The notes under the pieces are model-generated. The model saw nothing but the letters and a program-made list of their open reading frames with translations. It had not been told where the DNA came from and did not search any database. A stretch of 64,000 nt of DNA from Escherichia phage vB_EcoP-CHD5UKE1. The DNA lies in sequence record NC_070989.1. The stretch is one strand, 5' to 3'. Both the position numbers and the translations under genes were made by a program. Of this stretch, positions 1-61,739 are shown in pieces. The number at the start of each line of letters is the position of its first letter. The stretch's first letter is position 1.

Positions 1-1181
1 CAAACGGTCAAGTGTTTGATTCTGCTGCACCGAACATCACATATGCGTCCCCTCACACAATGGTAACACTAGCCTCCGCTCCTGGGCAGGTGGCGACTAA
101 CGGGGCAATTCAATCAATCACCTCTACAGACGATGTGGCTCCAGTGGGGGCTGGAGGTAAATACATATCCACAAACTTTGACGCATCACGTTCCAGTCCT
201 ATTTATGGTCGCTCCACTGAGGAGATTCTGACCCGTAACTTTGTTGGTGTTTGGACTATCCGTGCTCATGGTGGTTTTGTAGCAGCTAATACTTCTTGGT
301 CTGTTATCAACAGGGACAGCGCAGCTCCGGCTTTAAACACTTCTGTAGTTGGTGGTAAGGTGGAATCTAAATACACTAACCCAACCTCCTCTCAATATGC
401 TCGTATGTATATTTCCTCTTCTTGGGGGAGTGTTTGTTCTGCCGTGATTGAAGCACAAGGTACAAGTACTCACGCTTATAAGTTTTATGAGGATGGCACT
501 GTTGATTTTAGGCAGTCTGGTAAGACAAACCCATTCCGCATGTACACACCAACTGGAATTTGGTCTGGACTGACGGATGCGGGGCCAAACAATTTAACCA
601 CCGATGGAATGGACAGGGTGGCGATTTCTGGTGGCTCTGACACAGTGGTGCGTGGGTACTCTATTGGAGGATCTAAACCTAATGGTTATCCAACCAAGGT
701 TGGGTATCATATGTATTTGCCGGGAAATGACGCCTTCGGTATCGCCTGTACAACTATTGGAGGAGACAACGGAAGGTTCTGTCGATATTTTTACGACATA
801 GACGGGCAGATATATGGCTCAACTGATTATGGAAACTTTAGCTATACAAAGAGTGGTGTCTCGGATGAAAACCTGAAACATAACATTGTTGATATTGATG
901 CAGAAAGAGCTATTGAAGTAATAAAAGGACTGAAGTTCAAATCCTTTGTTTACAACGATGATGAGAAGAATCGATCTCGTCGTGGTATCATTGCACAGCA
1001 GGCAGAGACGGTAGAACCTCTGTATGTCAAGACTCGTAAGTATCCCGGAACTGGAAACGGCGATTCTATGAAAGAGCAGAAAGAGTTAGACACAACTCCT
1101 ATGCTACTTGACACTATGCAGGTTGTTCAGAATTTGCTGAAGCGTGTAGAAGAGTTAGAAGCTCAACTGGCTGCTAAGTAA
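1..1181 (+). CDS. tail fibre/tailspike protein, C-terminal part (5' end outside window), with peptidase-S74-like intramolecular chaperone domain
   Basis: Frame stays open to base 1. C-terminal ~120 aa (GVSDENLKHN...GLKFKSFVYNDDEK...RRGIIAQQ...coiled-coil EELEAQL) match the auto-cleaving chaperone domain of phage fibres/endosialidases. Terminator follows. Confidence 0.75.
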   Translation, partial: NGQVFDSAAPNITYASPHTMVTLASAPGQVATNGAIQSITSTDDVAPVGAGGKYISTNFDASRSSPIYGRSTEEILTRNFVGVWTIRAHGGFVAANTSWSVINRDSAAPALNTSVVGGKVESKYTNPTSSQYARMYISSSWGSVCSAVIEAQGTSTHAYKFYEDGTVDFRQSGKTNPFRMYTPTGIWSGLTDAGPNNLTTDGMDRVAISGGSDTVVRGYSIGGSKPNGYPTKVGYHMYLPGNDAFGIACTTIGGDNGRFCRYFYDIDGQIYGSTDYGNFSYTKSGVSDENLKHNIVDIDAERAIEVIKGLKFKSFVYNDDEKNRSRRGIIAQQAETVEPLYVKTRKYPGTGNGDSMKEQKELDTTPMLLDTMQVVQNLLKRVEELEAQLAAK

Positions 1182-1185
1182 AGGA

Positions 1186-1206
1186 TTGCCCCTTCGGGGG
1201 CTTTTA
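1186..1206 (+). terminator. rho-independent terminator after tail-fibre gene
   Basis: GC hairpin tgcccc-ttcg-ggggc followed by TTTT. Confidence 0.6.
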
Positions 1207-1275
1207 GAAGTTAAACTAGTGAATAGGTAATGAAACTAATATATCCCAAGAGGTTAATATATAGGAGACACTCAA

Positions 1276-1494
1276 ATGAAAATGATGAAACAAGCTGCAT
1301 ATGGTTTAATCTGTTTAGGTGCAGGTGTTGTGGTGTCAACCGCAGTTCCTGTAAGCGCAGTTCATCCACTAGTAACTGTCCCTGCTCCAGTAGAGAAGCT
1401 TAGCTCTCAATGCAAGCAGAGAACAATTCAAAATAACCTAGTTGTTATTTGTCCTGATGCTGAATCTAACGCTCTAAGAAAGATACTACCTTAA
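1276..1494 (+). CDS. small secreted/membrane protein (N-terminal signal-like hydrophobic segment), possibly lysis-associated
   Basis: RBS AGGAGA 8 nt upstream of ATG; hydrophobic N-terminus AAYGLICLGAGVVVSTAVPVSA; lies directly upstream of the lysozyme gene. Confidence 0.5.
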   Translation: MKMMKQAAYGLICLGAGVVVSTAVPVSAVHPLVTVPAPVEKLSSQCKQRTIQNNLVVICPDAESNALRKILP

Positions 1495-1523
1495 TTTAAA
1501 GGGACCACAAAAGGAGGTTAGAA

Positions 1524-2015
1524 ATGGATAACGTCGCATTGCCACCTGTACAATTAAACTTAAGCCCAGCTGGAATGGAATTCATCATGAAGCATGAGGG
1601 TATGAGAACAAAGGCTTATAAAGATTCCGCAGGTATCTGGACTATATGTGTAGGGGCTACGCGCGATATGAATGGTTATCCGGTTAGACAAGGATTAACG
1701 TATTCTATAGAGGATTGTCTAGCTCTGCTAGATAGAGACACACAAGACTCTGTTCGTGCTACTCAGAAGAACATAAAGGTTCCTTTACTAGTTCATGAGT
1801 TTGATGCACTCACTTCTTTCAACTTCAACGTTGGCAGTGGTGCTTTGAGCACATCTAAGTTAAGGAAAGTAATCAATGGAGATGTTAAGGGAGACGTTTA
1901 TTCCGAATTTCTTCGTTGGGATAAAATAACGGTCAAGGGAGAGAAGCAGAGAAGTCAGGGTCTTCATAATAGAAGAGTTGCAGAAGCTAATCTTTACACC
2001 GAAGGTAAATATTAA
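1524..2015 (+). CDS. lysozyme/endolysin, glycoside hydrolase family 24 (T4 E-like)
   Basis: RBS AAGGAGG; motifs HEG...KAYKD..G.WTI.VG and FDALTSFNFNVG align with T4-type lysozyme catalytic region. Confidence 0.9.
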   Translation: MDNVALPPVQLNLSPAGMEFIMKHEGMRTKAYKDSAGIWTICVGATRDMNGYPVRQGLTYSIEDCLALLDRDTQDSVRATQKNIKVPLLVHEFDALTSFNFNVGSGALSTSKLRKVINGDVKGDVYSEFLRWDKITVKGEKQRSQGLHNRRVAEANLYTEGKY

Positions 2016-2027
2016 TGGAGGTGCCTT

Positions 2028-2831
2028 TTGGCTATCGAAACTAATGCGGTAGTTATTACCGATTTAAACCCACTCTATCCTAGAGACAGGGATTACATCT
2101 ACGAGGGGGCGGCTCAAATCCGCCTCATTAAACAAACATTACAGAATACATTCCCCAATGTTACAGAACCAGTTGATATTGATTCTGACACCTTTAAGAT
2201 TATGTCAGAGAAGCTCAAGTTTACTGGTGATGCAATGGATGTTGGTGGTCTTATGATCAAGAACGTTACTCCGGGAACTGGCGACAAGGACGTTGTTACT
2301 AAAGGCCAGATGGAAGCGTTCATGAAGAACTGGATGGAGAATAAGCTCTATCGAATTGGTTCTTACTACATCACTGAAGAAGATATTAACCCCGGTGATT
2401 CTATCTCCTTAGGGTTTGGTTCTTGGGCTAAAGTGACTGGTGTCATTATGGGCACTGGTGTAGTAAACCCTGATGGTTCTGTCCCTAATGCTCAGAGAGT
2501 TGAGTTCCAAGCAGGTGGTACTGGTGGTCGTGTCTTCAACACCATTCGAACAGAGAACGTACCTTTGATGACAGTTAATGGCTCCAGCTTCTCCTTATCC
2601 AGTAACACCCACAGCCACAATATGGTATTTGGTCGTGGAGATGCTAGTGGTCATAACAGCTCGCCAAACTGGTATAGCCCGGGTGGTGGTTACAGCCAGA
2701 GAACTGATAATGACACACATACTCATACAATCTCTGGTAGTGTAAGTCTTGGTCGTGATGATATCTCTCGTCAACCTATTAACACTTTGCCACCATTCAG
2801 AGCAGCTCACATTTGGAGACGTATTAGCTAA
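2028..2831 (+). CDS. virion structural protein (putative tail/fibre-associated), Gly-rich
   Basis: Only in-frame start after upstream stop is TTG at 2028, preceded by GGAGGT; position inside structural module; no recognisable catalytic motif. Confidence 0.55.
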   Translation: MAIETNAVVITDLNPLYPRDRDYIYEGAAQIRLIKQTLQNTFPNVTEPVDIDSDTFKIMSEKLKFTGDAMDVGGLMIKNVTPGTGDKDVVTKGQMEAFMKNWMENKLYRIGSYYITEEDINPGDSISLGFGSWAKVTGVIMGTGVVNPDGSVPNAQRVEFQAGGTGGRVFNTIRTENVPLMTVNGSSFSLSSNTHSHNMVFGRGDASGHNSSPNWYSPGGGYSQRTDNDTHTHTISGSVSLGRDDISRQPINTLPPFRAAHIWRRIS

Positions 2832-2840
2832 GGAGGAATT

Positions 2841-5800
2841 ATGGCGCTGTATCCAATAAAGTCGCTAGGTGCTGTAGGCGTTATCGCTGATCAGGCTCCG
2901 ACAGACTTAGCTCCTAATGCTTTCACTAATGCTATAAATGCTCGATTTGTTGAGCAGAGAGTATTTAAGACGGGGGGCAATGCCCCTCTTTCTTATGTAG
3001 ACGAAGATAAGGATTTAACCCCTCTGTCTTTCGTTTCTATGCCTTTCGATTATTATAGCGCAGGTAATAGCTTTCTTGTTGTAGGTACAGATAAGAAGTT
3101 ATATAAACTGACAGATGAAAGCTTGACTGATATTAGCCGTAAGGTTGCTACAGTCACCAAGAAGGCTTCTGCCTCAATTAAGATTTATCCAGTTGTTTCT
3201 CAGATCGTTCCTAAAGAATCAACTATCTCAATGAACTTCAATCAGACCAAGAATCTAGAGGTTTCTCTTCTCCCTGCCGATGCTAACAATACTGATCTTA
3301 TTTGGGAGGTTAGTAATTCATCCTATGGAAGTGTTATGGTAGACCCTAGTGACTCCAAACTTGCTACTCTAACATCTTTTGAGAAAGAGGGTAATCTTGT
3401 AGTAACTATCTCTACTGCCAATGAATCCGTAGTGGCTCAGATTGCTGTTAATATCATCGATGGTGATTCAGGCATCTTCTTGAGTCAAGATACTGTTACA
3501 ATTCGTAAAGGAGGGACTACTACTCTCACGGTTGTTACTGGCAAAACCCCTGTAACTTGGTCCAGCAATAACGCTTCTATTGTATCTGTAACCCCTAACG
3601 CCAACTCTTTAACTGCTGTCATTACAGCGAATGGAGAAGGTAATGTAACAATCACTGCTGATAACGGGACTAAGACTGCTTCTTGTGAGATTGTTTCTAT
3701 CCCTCAGATTGATAGTATCTCTTTAAGCCAGTCAGATGTTACTGTGAGTAGAGGTTCTCAGTATATTTTAACTGCCACCCTTTCTCCTGCTAACGCCCCT
3801 AATCAAAACATTACTTGGACCTCTTCTAACCCAAATATTGCAACAGTATCAGGGACTAGCACACAAGGGACAGTAAATGCTTTACTTGCTGGCTTTACTG
3901 AGATTACAGCTACCACTGAAGAAGGTAATAGAGTTGCTGTCTGTACTGTACGTGTAGATTTAGCTGGAAGGACAATGAGAACAAGTGCTATGGCATTTGC
4001 TGCTCCTGTATCAGAGTCGGTAGAAACTCAAGATGAGGAAGTAGTAACTCCTCCTGAAAGTGAGGAAGTTGTTTATTTTGCTGAGCCTACATCTGGTATA
4101 GATACGTCAGGGATGTATGAAGGTAATAACTTCTATGACTACTCTAACGTGAATGATATTGAAGGTTTTGCAAGAGCTTCTTTACTGGCAACCCCTTTGT
4201 CATCTGTAACCTTAGATATTGTCAGCGCTTCTCTTGATGTTGGTGAAGAGATTGTCATTACAGCCACAGCTTCTCCAGAAGGTGAGTACTCTTATCAGTG
4301 GTCTGTTGATAAAACTGGTTATGTTTCTACAACTTCAGTTACTGGTAAATCTATCAAACTGGTTGCTCTTCGTAAAGGAGAGATTAACGTAACATGTACT
4401 GTCAGTCAGATGACTCAGAAAGATTACGATGCTTTTGATGACTATCCTTGGTATCACGCTGTTATCTCTAACTGTGCAGTTGCTACAACTCACTATGAAA
4501 CTCCTCAGGTAAAAGAATTCGAATCAGAATACTTTGTAGACCTTCCGGGGTGGGGTGAGCAAACAGTTGTTGATAATGATGGAAACCCTTCAGTCAAGAA
4601 GTTTAACTGGAAATGTGAGAGAGTGAGATCTTTTAACAACCGTCTTTTTGCCCTGAATATGAGAGAGGCTAATGCTTCTGGTGTTACCACTAACTACCCG
4701 CTTCGTCTTCGTTGGTCTAACTTTGCCAATGAGAACAAGGCTCCTACACTGTGGGATGATTTTGCTTACGATCGTGTTGTGTCTTCGGACTTAGCTTCTA
4801 ACATCGTAGGGCAGACTCAGGCTCTAGAGAATGGATATGCTGGTTACATTGATTTAGCTGACTCTAACGGCAGCTTGATTGATATCCTACCTCTTAAAGA
4901 TTACTTGTTCGTTTATACAGAGTTTGAAACGTATATAGGTTCTCCGACTAATAACACGTACCAACCTCTAATGTTCAAGAAGCTCTTTAATGACTCTGGT
5001 ATCCTTGCTCCTGAGTGTGTGGTTGAAGTAGAAGGTAGTCACTTCGTAGTTACTCAGAACGATGTAATCTTACACAATGGTGCAACCAAGAAGTCAATTG
5101 CATCTAACCGTGTCAAGAACATGTTGATTAACGAGGTGTGTCTGGTTAACCCTCTAGCAACTCGAGTACACTTGCATCAGGATAAGAAAGAAGTTTGGGT
5201 TCTGTACGTAGGTCCGGGAGAACCAAAAGAAAGCTTCGCTTGTACTAAAGCTGCTGTATGGAATTATGAGTTTGATACTTGGTCTTTCCGTACTATTCCA
5301 TATGCTCAGTGTATCGGTCTTGTTGATCCTCCTGTTTTAGAAAGAGGTCCAATCTGGTCTGACTTCCAAGAAATCACTTGGGATGACCCATCTATTAAAG
5401 AACTTGTTTGGAGAAAGGATGCAACAAACTTCAGACAGAGGGTTACGATAGTAGGTTCGTTCTTGAGGGGATTCTATCAGGTGGATGTAGGTGCTCTTGA
5501 CTATTTCTATGACAGGCTAAACGATGTTGTTATAGAGAAGCCTCTGGAAATGAGGTTGGAGAGGACTGGTATAGATTTTGATAATGTGACTAATGAGTGG
5601 AATCAGAAGCATATTAACAGGTTCCGGCCTCAGACAACCGGTTCAGGTACTTACATATTTGAAGCTGGTGGTAGTCAATTCTCAAATGAATATGGACACC
5701 CACACACATCGAAGACTTATACAATTGGTGTTGACAGGCATGTCTCGGTGAGACTGAACCATCCATACCTTTTCTATAATGTTATAGATAATGATGTTAA

Positions 5801-12434: not shown

Positions 12435-12443
12435 TAATGTATA
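12435..12443 (+). promoter_or_regulatory. candidate phage-specific promoter core TAATGTATA
   Basis: Exact TAATGTATA(TAGG) 39 nt upstream of the ATG at 12482; the same 9-mer recurs at similar distance upstream of several minus-strand genes. Confidence 0.5.
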
Positions 12444-52834: not shown

Positions 52835-52910
52835 TGGTCGGGACGGAAGGATTCGAACCCTCGTAAGGCGAGTTAGAAGCTCGCTGCCTGTTCCACTAGA
52901 CTACGCCCCG
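52835..52910 (-). tRNA. tRNA-Arg (anticodon UCU), 76 nt with encoded CCA
   Basis: Cloverleaf folded by hand: acceptor CGGGGCG/CGTCCCG (one G-U), D-stem GTCT/AGGC, anticodon stem GCGAG/CTCGC with loop CTTCTAA, T-stem GAGGG/CCTTC with loop TTCGAAT, discriminator A, CCA. Confidence 0.8.
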
Positions 52911-58653: not shown

Positions 58654-59562
58654 TTATGCTGCCTGACGTGCTGCCATAATCTCAGCCGCTTTACGCAATA
58701 CTTCTTCTTCTTCTGCTTTCGCCGCTTGTTCGGTACGGGTAGCAACCGTTGAAGAGATACGACCGCGCAGACTTTCTAACTTCTCCTGCATAGCTGCAAC
58801 AGTCTTTTCCATTTCATCAGCGTATGAATCGAGTGATTCTAATTCCTTGCTTGATGCGTTCATCAGGTAGTTATCAGAGATCGCTACCGTTGAGGCCGTG
58901 ACTTTCTTGATGAGTGAATCAAAGGACTTTTTAACCTTGCCTACTTCTTCACTTAAGGCAATGGTGTTATCACTAGTTGCGCCGTTGCGCTCATCAGCCA
59001 GTAATTTGGCTTCAATACGGATTGCATTCAAGCGTTCAACCAAAGCGTAAATATCTTGGTTAAAATCTTCCTTGTTTTTCGCCGGAATTTGCAGGTGTGC
59101 CGCCACGTTGTCATTACAACCCTTGTAAAAGTTAGGATTATCGACTTCAATTTCACGGCCTAAAGCAAAGTTTTCGAAAGCGTTTGACCAGCGAGCGCGG
59201 TTTTGTTCCATTTTGGTTTTAATTTGCGCTTCTTTCGCGTCTTCTTTAGCTTTCGCCTCACCTTCCAGATTAATCCACTTTTTACGACCATTTGCCGCAT
59301 CGGTGTTAAACTTGATAGGAGTTAAGAAAGTAATTGCGGTAGCGATAACATCCATATCACGGAAACGTTCGGTTAACAGGAAGTCAACCGCCGCCTGCAA
59401 TACATCTAACTTCTTACCATTACTGCGGAAGTGCTGTAAGTGTCCTAACAGGAAGTTAGAAACATCTTGTTTGATCGCCGCGTTATTACTGCGAATGTTG
59501 TTAGCCAGAGCATTAAAACCGGATTCGTTAACCAGAGTAAAGATTTTAGCCATAATATTCAC
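58654..59562 (-). CDS. hypothetical helical/coiled-coil protein (302 aa), first sizeable early gene
   Basis: ORF-track ORF with RBS GAAAGGTG; first gene downstream of the repeat-rich promoter region. Confidence 0.55.
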   Translation of the reverse strand: MNIMAKIFTLVNESGFNALANNIRSNNAAIKQDVSNFLLGHLQHFRSNGKKLDVLQAAVDFLLTERFRDMDVIATAITFLTPIKFNTDAANGRKKWINLEGEAKAKEDAKEAQIKTKMEQNRARWSNAFENFALGREIEVDNPNFYKGCNDNVAAHLQIPAKNKEDFNQDIYALVERLNAIRIEAKLLADERNGATSDNTIALSEEVGKVKKSFDSLIKKVTASTVAISDNYLMNASSKELESLDSYADEMEKTVAAMQEKLESLRGRISSTVATRTEQAAKAEEEEVLRKAAEIMAARQAA

Positions 59563-60474
59563 CTTTCAATTGTAAGGGCGCTATTGCCCCGCTCTCTATG
59601 AGCTTGTTTAAGTCACTATTAACTTAACTATAACCACTCGTTGTTAAGTAGTTATAGGTAAGCGGGGCGGTCTTATCAGGAGTTAACCTTGCCGCCCCCT
59701 TATCCGTGATGTTTCATCTGGTATCTTTAATTAGTCGCTATAAACGAAGCCGACCTGATAGCGATGATCAATCATCACAATAAGGCAGTGCGTCCGACTC
59801 TAATTAGTTACGTTATTGTAACCGTCGGCAATATCGTTTACTTTGCTTTCGCTCTCGCCTATCCTTTTATATCAACTCTCAATCGCTAGTCATCGCCCAC
59901 TACGGGATACTATTGCGAAAGAGTCATTGACCGTCTAATGTTCCGACGTTTTATATCTTTCGGCAAGTTTACTACATAAACCGACTATGTACTTTCATCA
60001 TAAGATGAATCTCAAGCCGTTCACATCGTAAACGTTCACACTAAACCTTATTGTTAAATAGCAATTTGCCACTTTTTAACCACTCCCCGCCGCTCTCAAT
60101 TGAGCGTTAATTCGTCGGGATTGCCTACCCTGATTAACTTCTTTCACCGTAGCACCGTTTTAGCGATGACCGCCGCTACCCTTAACCGTGGGCGATTAGC
60201 TTAAGTCTTTGCGTGTACTCGATGAATCCGTTTTATCAGTGGTGACGTTTCCAGTAAGGGAATGTAAGATTGTTTTCTCTGATAGTTTAGAGAATCTTAC
60301 ACCGTTTTATCTGGTATGTTATCTGATGGTTATTATCATCTAACATATTCAACCGATATAGGAGAATGTTTAAATTATTAAAGAGCGGTAAATCTGTCAG
60401 TGTGCTTTCTCACACTACGCAACTGTTAGCCGTTGTTACGCTTTCCTTAAGCGGTGATTTGCTTAAGTGTGCTC

Positions 60475-60503
60475 ATTATGAATCATGTTGTTTTCGCTGT
60501 CAA
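60475..60503 (-). promoter_or_regulatory. sigma70-type promoter (minus strand): -35 TTGACA, 17-bp spacer, -10 CATAAT
   Basis: Read on the minus strand: TTGACA-gcgaaaacaacatgatt-CATAAT. Confidence 0.6.
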
Positions 60504-60632
60504 CCACTTTTTTAATCTTTTTCGTCGTTCCCGCTATTGGGAGGATATATCAATCAGCTTTATTTGATTGAAGACTAAGCGGTGATGCTTATCTTATGAT
60601 TCATATTGTTAAAGAGCGGTTACTACATTTAC

Positions 60633-60660
60633 AGCTTAACACATCGTGTTAGCTTGTCAA
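60633..60660 (-). promoter_or_regulatory. sigma70-type promoter (minus strand): -35 TTGACA, 16-bp spacer, extended -10 TGtTAAGCT
   Basis: Perfect -35; weaker -10 with TG extension. Confidence 0.4.
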
Positions 60661-60960
60661 CTCTTTTTATCATCTTCTTTTAATTCCTTTCCCTTGTCTC
60701 GCGTGAATCTATGCGAAAGGGCAAGATGATAAGTCTGATTTGTCTTTTAGGAATCTAGTGCGCTTTCAAGCATTGACCATTTGAAAGTATCGAACAAATG
60801 AGGCTTATTTTGTTGCTCATCGTCCGCCTGTTCACGTATGAATCAGGAATCAATTCTAGTGGTCAACTAAGCGCCTTATAGTAATGACGTTCCCGCCACC
60901 TGTAAGACAAATCATATTTTTAAAGAGCTGGATGTTTCACGTCATCGCTTACTTATGCTC

Positions 60961-60989
60961 ATTATGTATCAGGCTTTTTCTAGTGTCAA
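60961..60989 (-). promoter_or_regulatory. sigma70-type promoter (minus strand): -35 TTGACA, 17-bp spacer, -10 CATAAT
   Basis: Read on the minus strand: TTGACA-ctagaaaaagcctgata-CATAAT; near-duplicate of the promoter at 60475. Confidence 0.6.
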
Positions 60990-61086
60990 TACTCTTTTTC
61001 AAGTATTTTCACTTTCTAGCCTGATTTTTAAAGAGCGGGGCAATTTCTTGCCTTGTATGTTTTACATCGTACCCGATGAAATGAAG

Positions 61087-61095
61087 TATACATTA
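61087..61095 (-). promoter_or_regulatory. TAATGTATA motif (minus strand) inside the early regulatory region
   Basis: Exact 9-mer; about 50 nt upstream of a TTAAAGAGCGG copy. Confidence 0.35.
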
Positions 61096-61270
61096 ATCAG
61101 ATGAGGTTGCAATAGGGTAAAGCAAATTATTTTAAACTTTTTTGAAAGGTGGGAAGTATAAGAGAATGCGCGCGGGATAACATACGCAAAACAGGCTGTA
61201 AATCACTTTCTAACGTCCTGTAAGCCATTCTAACGAGCTAAAAGGGAGTAAGGTATACAATCACCTTAGA

Positions 61271-61297
61271 AAAGAAAAAAGCCTCATAGTGAGGCTT
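61271..61297 (-). terminator. rho-independent terminator (minus strand)
   Basis: aagcctca-cta-tgaggctt followed by TTTTCTTTTC on the minus strand; downstream of gene 61374..61739. Confidence 0.6.
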
Positions 61298-61373
61298 ATA
61301 GGAAGGATTTAAAGCATCAGATAAATTATGACCATAGGCATGACTACGGCACAATAAAGAAGAAAGATTAAGC

Positions 61374-61739
61374 CTATGGATTTACACATTGACCGTTACC
61401 GGATGCCATTTCATTCATGGACTCATCAAAGAGCGTCAACGATGAGCGCATCAAGTGATCCACCGTAATTTGTTTACCGGTAGTTTCATTTACCAGTTGA
61501 ATAGTTTTAGCGTATGATTGTACATGTTCAAAATCATCAACATGCAAAATAATAACTTTAGGTGACTGTTTACCAGTTTCATAGTTTTCTATCAAATAGG
61601 TGCACTGTAAACCGTCAACCATATCAGGGGAGAATGTTGCAGCCTTTACACTACCCATAGCCGATAGCAGGACACCTAACAGGAGAACAACCAGAAAGAA
61701 GCCTACAACCGTTTTAACGACGAATTTAATAAACCACAT
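61374..61739 (-). CDS. membrane/secreted hypothetical protein (121 aa)
   Basis: N-terminal hydrophobic VVGFFLVVLLLGVLLSAMGSVKA. Confidence 0.55.
   Translation of the reverse strand: MWFIKFVVKTVVGFFLVVLLLGVLLSAMGSVKAATFSPDMVDGLQCTYLIENYETGKQSPKVIILHVDDFEHVQSYAKTIQLVNETTGKQITVDHLMRSSLTLFDESMNEMASGNGQCVNP

Follow-up and report, generated by a model that had tools for sequence, protein, structure and literature searches.

The 64,000-nucleotide stretch of Escherichia phage vB_EcoP-CHD5UKE1 DNA analyzed here (NC_070989.1; referred to below as the window) contains, at 59554–61373, a long gene-free spacer between its homologs of phage phiEco32 genes 124 and 125. The left half of this spacer encodes a strongly conserved folded RNA, previously undescribed and outside the known RNA families, and the short repeats found through the spacer are, judged from their sequence, BoxA antitermination signals of the rRNA operon type. 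The same architecture recurs in distant relatives of the phage. We think it likely that stacked host promoters here load a Nus-modified, rRNA-style, Rho-resistant polymerase, which transcribes the structured RNA before it enters the early operon. The new content is the rrn-type BoxA cluster in a virulent phage together with the large conserved structured leader RNA; the promoters themselves had already been published.

The window derives from a phiEco32-like coliphage (Kuravirus) whose closest relative is Bas91 (99.3% identity), and the region with its flanks has matches in 96–97 genomes of Escherichia and Shigella phages that belong to the phiEco32 group (Kuravirus and allies). The gene-free stretch is the counterpart of the ~1.9-kb spacer that separates phiEco32 genes 124 and 125, and it is left unannotated in most depositors' records. 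Phage phiEco32 serves as a model of how a phage takes control of host RNA polymerase, yet the way in which its long early transcripts escape termination is still to be defined; for the related phage 7-11, a 2022 paper on its regulation states that an antitermination strategy "remains to be defined." Perfect rrn-type BoxA sites, present here as a cluster, offer an answer on early antitermination that is open to direct test in E. coli, for which nus mutants, bicyclomycin, and chromatin immunoprecipitation assays already exist as resources for BoxA questions.

BoxA repeats and early promoters

An initial annotation of this DNA described the sequence TTAAAGAGCGG as present in three exact copies and one variant, spaced 231, 311, and 108 bp apart. 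This description is accurate, and the copy number was reached in 0 of 100 shuffles. On the transcribed (minus) strand the motif reads CCGCUCUUUAA(N)AAU. All four copies match the gammaproteobacterial BoxA consensus GYTCTTTAANA (Baniulyte 2017, PMC5725501) perfectly on that strand, the differing base of the variant copy lying outside the consensus. The window holds five such matches where 0.58 are expected (five were reached in 0 of 100 shuffles), and four of the five lie together in a 660-bp stretch of the transcribed strand. BoxA RNA is bound by NusB–NusE and, with other Nus factors and SuhB, gives a Rho-resistant complex that aids rRNA folding (PMC5725501); BoxA also shields long untranslated CRISPR transcripts from Rho (Stringer 2020, PMC7665894). 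A literature search found no link between boxA and phiEco32, the founding phiEco32 papers being outside that search.

The region was also correctly recognized as an early control region with at least three leftward TTGACA promoters, and this much is already in the literature. The SU10 paper reports three sigma70 early promoters between CDS120 and CDS121 (its Table S2) and a terminator that follows the gene upstream of the promoter spacer, an arrangement that it describes as "like phiEco32." The three window promoters, all on the minus strand, are orthologous to those entries: P1 (60961–60989, TTGACA-17-CATAAT) to the SU10 promoter at 73996, P2 (60633–60660, TTGACA-16-TAAGCT) to that at 73668, and P3 (60475–60503, TTGACA-17-CATAAT) to that at 73511. 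In a promoter scan scored as hexamer matches out of 12, P1 and P3 both reach 11. P2, with its −35 TTGACA at 60660–60655, has a weak −10 that matches the consensus at three of six positions, and it falls below the scan threshold; the SU10 paper marks its ortholog "alt -10?". Among the 22 sequences compared, the −10 element of P3 is invariant and its −35 is TTGACA in 17 and TTGACG in 5. The −35 of P1 is retained in 19 of 22 relatives. That of P2 is retained in 15 of 22, and at P2 the remaining relatives have a replaced cassette. Taken as a class, promoter-like sites show no enrichment (9 vs. 6.6 ± 2.8 expected).

BoxA-1 to BoxA-3 sit 8–80 nt past the predicted P1–P3 starts, the starts being inferred from the −10 elements. 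BoxA-1 (GCUCUUUAAUA, 60376–60386, minus strand) lies inside the leader RNA, ~80 nt after the P3 start, with a covarying hairpin at 60417–60398 just ahead of it, and is invariant in 22 of 22 relatives. (A candidate CRP site at 60398–60413 was rejected; its half-site spacing is wrong by eye, and the sequence is that of the covarying RNA hairpin.) BoxA-2 (GCUCUUUAACA, 60607–60617, minus strand), at about +8 to +20 from the P2 start, is likewise conserved in all 22. BoxA-3 (60918–60928, minus strand), at about +25 to +35 from the P1 start, is the variant copy and reads GCUCUUUAAAA, as does BoxA-4 at 61036–61026, which forms with its upstream hairpin a unit at 61026–61052. That hairpin (GGCAA-GAAA-UUGCC, 61052–61039) has a GNRA loop, and BoxA-4 would be transcribed either from a TAATGTATA site or by read-through from gene 125 (both described below). 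A hairpin precedes each of the BoxA copies, and the hairpin sequences vary.

The BoxA element is conserved among the Kuravirus-like relatives independently of its flanks, each relative having two to five copies on the sense strand; in the early region of phage 7-11 we found no BoxA cluster. The fetched relatives that span the spacer carry three to six perfect BoxA matches each, those clustered in the spacer all being on the transcribed strand, and in SU7, Bas88, and the NC-B group BoxA is kept though the surrounding sequence has been replaced. Some copies in relatives read GCTCTTTAACAATTTATC(AG), which is the rrnB boxA with its flank over 18–21 nt (rrnB sequence from PMC2176067).

We also note that an 18–21-mer around BoxA-1 recurs in one unrelated IMG/VR virus (six entries), where the 21-mer TTAAAGAGCGGTAAATCTGTC, equal to BoxA-1 plus flank, places BoxA directly upstream of a TTGACA that has the same orientation as the BoxA sense strand. 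The site is probably a further BoxA, and BoxA leaders may be more widespread in phages.

The repeats, which are real, clustered, conserved, and near promoters, had been proposed to be operators, DNA sites at which a repressor or activator of phage or host origin would tune the early promoters. Their strand specificity speaks against this: every copy is in the sense orientation of the leftward transcripts, at +8 to +80 past the starts and not over core promoter elements. Moreover, the copies match an RNA-level consensus perfectly, some relatives match the rrnB boxA flank over 18–21 nt, and TTAAAGAGCGG is not palindromic, unlike most operators. We therefore consider operators highly improbable.

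A different use of the same BoxA sequences would be as decoys, in which copies on abundant early transcripts titrate NusB–NusE(S10) away from the host rrn operons and so contribute to host shut-off. Three to five perfect BoxA copies behind near-consensus promoters, some of them identical to the rrnB boxA and its flank, would suit such a role. One copy per promoter is, on the other hand, just what antitermination in cis requires, and the fixed place of BoxA-1 at the 5′ edge of the RNA suits a cis role as well. The two roles are compatible, and we judge decoys as the explanation of the copies to be quite unlikely.

The second repeat family of the spacer had been given as four YTTATGAWTCA units. 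One of these (60593) is exact, and the others depart from the motif, by one mismatch at 60475 and 60835 and by two at ~60960; across the window the motif is not enriched (12 vs. 8 ± 2.5). Alignment with 21 relatives identifies the units at 60475 and ~60960 as the −10 regions of P3 and P1, and those at 60593 and 60835 as the corresponding part of two promoter copies that have decayed. The first of the latter is a decayed −10 region (CATAAG; 60593–60603, minus strand) of a duplicated promoter cassette that aligns to the P3 −10 and spacer, and the second (60835–60867, minus strand), deleted in many relatives, has TTGACC, a 20-bp spacer, and CATACG. Both repeat families thus appear from the alignment to be parts of one unit, and the right half of the spacer (60500–61373) aligns as a variable array of promoter cassettes with many indels.

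In several relatives, inserts of 120–190 bp (within the counterpart of window 60590–61000) lie directly beside TTAAAGAGCG copies 2 and 3, in five relatives beside BoxA-2 and in seven beside BoxA-3 (in one relative, both). The inserts carry promoter-like (TTGCAA..TACTAA) and hairpin elements of their own. Since they abut BoxA copies, BoxA marks the cassette junctions, and recombination at these junctions may shuffle promoter and leader modules.

A replication origin had been suggested as well, in view of the iteron-like spacing of the repeats, and in principle this could also be a transcription-activated origin whose transcript serves as a pre-primer (as in ColE1 RNA II or in T7 and T4). The region is long, gene-free, rich in repeats and strong promoters, and somewhat lower in G+C content at 60200–61550 (0.36–0.39) than the window average, and a pre-primer RNA could well be a conserved folded transcript of this kind. 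Nonetheless, the supposed iterons are accounted for as BoxA sites and promoter-cassette remnants, and their number and spacing vary among relatives. The cumulative GC skew runs straight through 59.5–61.4 kb with no inflection, its only sign change being at ~18 kb, where gene orientation flips from plus to minus, although in phages GC skew marks origins only weakly. DnaA boxes (TTWTNCACA) are absent from the region and occur at chance level window-wide. An origin here is in our view very unlikely.

The folded leader RNA

Downstream of P3 the transcript would enter a ~0.9-kb structured, untranslated leader RNA (59554–60470, minus strand) that extends from the P3 start region to the Shine-Dalgarno sequence of gp124, the first gene of the early operon. 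Positions 59563–60470 are nearly indel-free among relatives, and the sequence is 77–97% identical over 900 nt among Kuravirus and Suseptimavirus relatives. In the more distant relatives its conservation exceeds that of gp124 itself (92% vs. 75% in SU7 and 88% vs. 74% in Bas88). In the close set, invariant runs of 27, 18, and 12 nt cover loops and single-stranded stretches.

The leader is not coding, since its variable columns show no 3-nt periodicity (121/135/138). The initial annotation's statement that no open reading frame (ORF) of at least 61 codons is present is correct, the largest in the region having 49 codons on the plus strand. Small protein genes missed by such a cut-off would be suggested by the ORFs of 56–66 codons that depositors have annotated in the spacers of SU7, MN05, and Paul (L008 2829–3029; L014 2926–3096; L021 3078–3254, in our set of fetched sequences). 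Against this, no 3-nt substitution periodicity was found anywhere in 59563–61373, while in gp124 it is strong (84/245/57); the ORF list has no minus-strand ORF of at least 30 codons within 59563–60470; and the covariation pattern is that of RNA helices. The region almost certainly hides no small genes, and the lack of codon periodicity in the spacer substitutions makes the depositors' ORFs probably spurious. The annotation is corrected accordingly in two respects, in that the "iteron/operator" repeats are better read as RNA signals and the small spacer ORFs are probably not genes.

The fold was derived with RNAalifold from the minus strand of 22 sequences (the close set). It contains 262 pairs, with 99.0% of the cells paired, and 73 of the 262 pairs are compensatory vs. 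29.3 ± 3.1 in column shuffles (reached in 0 of 500), though such absolute counts are inflated because RNAalifold selects covarying pairs, and the controls were treated alike. Sliding the partners by 1–3 columns leaves 6–11 compensatory pairs. A gp124 control of equal length and equal number of variable columns gave 27 covarying pairs and 5.7% broken cells, vs. 2.2% in the leader. Folded as its plus strand, the leader scores worse in the same pipeline, and among the leader pairs G-U makes up 10.7% of cells vs. 0.4% for A-C; this asymmetry indicates that the folded strand is the minus strand, the one transcribed by the promoters. The minimum free energy of the single sequence is −280 kcal/mol, vs. 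−217 ± 6.6 kcal/mol for shuffles (z = −9.5).

The central domain (59777–60054, minus strand) is closed by the helix 60053–60038/59793–59780. A 27-nt run at 60043–60069, invariant in Kuravirus and Suseptimavirus, holds the 5′ strand of this helix, which is invariant in the close set and has eight compensated pairs in the divergent set described below. The inner helices of the domain covary at 11 of 11 and 5 of 5 pairs. The 3′ domain (59623–59779, minus strand) has three helices, 59779–59758/59726–59707, 59756–59734, and 59664–59649/59638–59623, with 10 of 17, 7 of 7, and 12 of 15 covarying pairs in that order. Long irregular helices of 15–26 bp are present in the leader. A GC stem with a long loop had been noticed at this end of the region, and it stands, at 59664–59699 (minus strand), as a covarying helix of the structured RNA. 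The stem of this hairpin is 7 bp of GC and its loop, CAAGGUUAACUCCUGAUAAGA, is 21 nt long. In the close set five of seven pairs covary and the loop hardly varies; with the divergent homologs six of six pairs covary and the loop sequence changes.

The loop (59671–59691) contains the palindrome GUUAAC, and a search of the window for a site complementary to the 21-nt loop found none. Over 6 nt the loop is complementary to the invariant loop ACGGUUAA (60182–60189) of another hairpin, and the two could form a kissing contact within or between molecules; as both loops are invariant in the close set, no covariation is possible there. A 16-nt complementarity between 61029–61044 and 59583–59598 is not kept in phiEco32-type sequences and so was treated as coincidental.

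Searches placed the RNA outside known families. At gathering thresholds Rfam 15 (including GOLLD, ROOL, OLE, 6S, and riboswitches) gave no match in the window save a tRNA elsewhere, and at permissive E values up to 10 the leader gave chance-level matches only. It had no match in 5,426 E. coli genomes searched by BLAST or in GTDB genomes scanned for exact motifs, and nhmmer found none in the remainder of the window or in phage 7-11, of which the right half was searched. An IMG/VR search returned only five known Kuravirus contigs, and one metagenome scan gave eight further close relatives. This large, deeply conserved, covariation-supported RNA sits in easily cultured coliphages, several of which are in public collections (BASEL Bas88–91), and is thereby open to experiment.

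Divergent homologs and a model for early transcription

A protein search of public assemblies with gp124 yielded homologs down to 47% identity, and the loci that extend upstream have 1.4–3.4 kb without called genes before the gp124 homolog. An nhmmer profile of the RNA matches directly upstream of every gp124 homolog, with E values from 1e-113 to 5e-16. The divergent loci that span the upstream region (gp124 47–70% identical) have two or three perfect BoxA sites each, all sense and none antisense. In each locus that reaches that far the proximal BoxA is 870–936 nt before the gene, compared with 833 nt in the window, and the modules of promoter, hairpin, and BoxA recur.

In a 24-sequence divergent alignment (alignment A2), the sole long invariant run is GCTCTTTAA-AAT, that is, BoxA-1. 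The RNA core shared with the divergent homologs has 105 compensatory pairs of 144, vs. 56 ± 4 in shuffles and 33–48 in slid controls. Its best-supported part is the 3′ half (60053–60038/59793–59780, 59932–59872, 59829–59807, 59779–59707, 59756–59734, 59699–59665, and 59664–59623), and the 5′ half is remodeled in the divergent phages.

The upstream called genes of the long divergent contigs are divergently oriented, so the genome arrangement differs there, and three of these loci include the large terminase. Five Logan contigs (L046, L048, L049, L051, and L053; about positions 1–5000) have 3.0–3.4 kb free of genes between the divergently transcribed upstream genes and the gp124 homolog, of which the RNA occupies only the last ~1 kb, with a further 1.5–2 kb upstream of it; the terminase is among the upstream genes in L048, L051, and L053.

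In the model that we favor, host sigma70 RNA polymerase would start leftward at the tandem promoters P1–P3, and each nascent transcript would soon display a hairpin and then BoxA. NusB–NusE(S10), together with NusA, NusG, and SuhB, would assemble on BoxA and make the polymerase processive and Rho-resistant. The promoters lead not into a gene but into ~0.9 kb of untranslated, stably folded RNA, so such a modification of polymerase would be needed; the modified enzyme would cross this RNA (up to 1.4 kb from P1) and then the long early operon. The Nus complex may also assist the folding of the leader RNA, as it does at rRNA. Expression of the RNA is suggested by the promoters upstream of it. We infer that it acts as RNA, either in cis on expression of gp124 and the early operon or in trans, through a partner from the host or the phage.

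Several points weigh against this model. The start sites and RNA ends are predictions from sequence, as are Nus binding, Rho sensitivity, and the antagonism of Rho at the phage BoxA sites. BoxA-4 lies upstream of P1 and would need the poorly conserved TAATGTATA site or terminator read-through to be transcribed at all. The remodeling of the 5′ half in divergent phages and the inflation of the absolute covariation counts have been given above. A predicted long-range helix of 7–9 bp, which would join 60393–60383, beside BoxA-1, to the gp124 Shine-Dalgarno region at 59567–59557, has no covariation support in the close set. In addition, rRNA is intrinsically Rho-resistant and the Nus complex there is mainly a folding aid (Baniulyte 2017, PMC5725501), and for that reason the anti-Rho part of the model may be secondary.

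The folded 0.9 kb might alternatively be passive, either a spacer proof against Rho and resistant to RNases or a series of hairpins for RNase III or RNase E processing and for stability of the early mRNA, as in T7 early transcripts, with BoxA serving the downstream operon only. The RNA is contiguous with the gp124 mRNA, a scan having found no terminator between them, and both its long irregular helices and its remodeled 5′ half would fit such a role. A spacer or stability element would need less conservation than is observed here, in identity over the full length, in invariant loops, and in the several distant relatives that conserve the RNA above gp124; the domain architecture, moreover, survives at 47% gp124 identity. 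We thus regard a passive element as unlikely.

More tentatively, and as a possibility to which we give less than even weight, the RNA could represent a new class of large structured noncoding RNA of virulent enterobacterial phages, produced in rRNA-like fashion (tandem strong promoters, then BoxA/Nus antitermination that also chaperones folding) and having a function of its own as a scaffold, a decoy, or an anti-defense or host-takeover factor. Such an RNA might be processed out of the early mRNA and might form multimers through its palindromic GUUAAC loop.

Among known systems the E. coli rrn leader (boxB-boxA-boxC, with its NusB/NusE/NusA/NusG/SuhB complex) invites comparison. The two have in common the BoxA sequence itself, some phage copies with the flank over 18–21 nt, a hairpin before BoxA, tandem strong sigma70 promoters upstream, a long structured untranslated RNA downstream, and a predicted long-range helix from the BoxA neighborhood to the far end of the RNA. 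The rrn leader-spacer stem encloses the 16S rRNA, and the predicted phage helix is reminiscent of that stem. The version in this virulent phage differs in having serial BoxA copies followed by a non-rRNA without an Rfam family and then a protein operon.

At the phage λ nut sites too, an early phage transcript has BoxA soon after the early promoters, where it serves to render host RNA polymerase resistant to termination. In nut, however, boxB follows boxA and is bound by N, whereas here hairpins of varying sequence precede BoxA as in rrn, and this phage is virulent and not lambdoid. The T7 promoters A1, A2, and A3 are similarly tandem, near-consensus sigma70 promoters near a genome end that fire inward to early genes; in T7 gene 0.3 is preceded by only a short leader with RNase III sites, in which no BoxA is known, whereas here a 0.9-kb structured RNA intervenes. 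In T4-type phages, promoter/stem-loop cassettes (PeSLs), which are repeated promoter-plus-hairpin modules, flank variable inserts. The 120–190-bp cassettes beside BoxA copies in the relatives resemble these, but they contain no ORFs, and their shared junction motif is BoxA.

The leader is also comparable to GOLLD, ROOL, and the phi29 packaging RNA, which are large structured RNAs (GOLLD and ROOL often phage-carried) of hundreds of nucleotides with many covarying helices and conserved loops. GOLLD and ROOL are free-standing genes next to tRNAs, while the phage leader is a 5′ leader fused to an mRNA and matches no Rfam family. Finally, BoxA sites of CRISPR arrays and the suhB leader, which were called with the same consensus, likewise stand before a long untranslated potential Rho target (PMC7665894; PMC5725501); they are chromosomal and single-copy, whereas the phage BoxA is multicopy and stands before a folded RNA and not a repeat array.

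Flanking genes and neighboring elements

The phiEco32 gp124 homolog (58654–59553, minus strand) is the first early ORF after the leader, and its 299-amino acid product is 100% identical to database proteins. Its start is the conserved ATG at 59553, which has AAAGGUGA upstream, and hence the gene-free span is 59554–61373; the program that called ORFs begins the gene instead at a GTG at 59562, adding 59554–59562. The protein has no Pfam family, and its PHROG is one of unknown function. An AlphaFold model of moderate confidence (predicted local distance difference test score 74) has no significant match in the PDB or BFVD beyond its own orthologs.

On the other side of the spacer lies the phiEco32 gene 125 homolog (61374–61739, minus strand; 121 amino acids). 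It is called "terminase" in many records and in PHROG 13168, and the label derives solely from the PHROG name. A Pfam search with this protein had no match, and this, together with its early-region location, makes the label doubtful. The operon of genes 128–125 ends at an intrinsic terminator within the spacer (61270–61297, minus strand), found by scan and annotated in SU10, whose stem covaries among relatives.

Between this terminator and BoxA-4, at 61087–61095 on the minus strand, is the TAATGTATA motif that had been noted in the region. It matches the literature consensus for promoters of the phage sigma factor gp36, and the window has five copies vs. 0.59 expected. Of 22 genomes, just three, those of the window, ECBP2, and KBNP1711, have the exact motif at the spacer position, and phiEco32, SU10, and Paul lack it there. 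The other four exact copies, at 12435, 23038, 23110, and 29055, are presumably middle and late promoters of the phage sigma factor. The window also carries a tRNA-Arg gene (anticodon TCT) at 52835–52910 on the minus strand.

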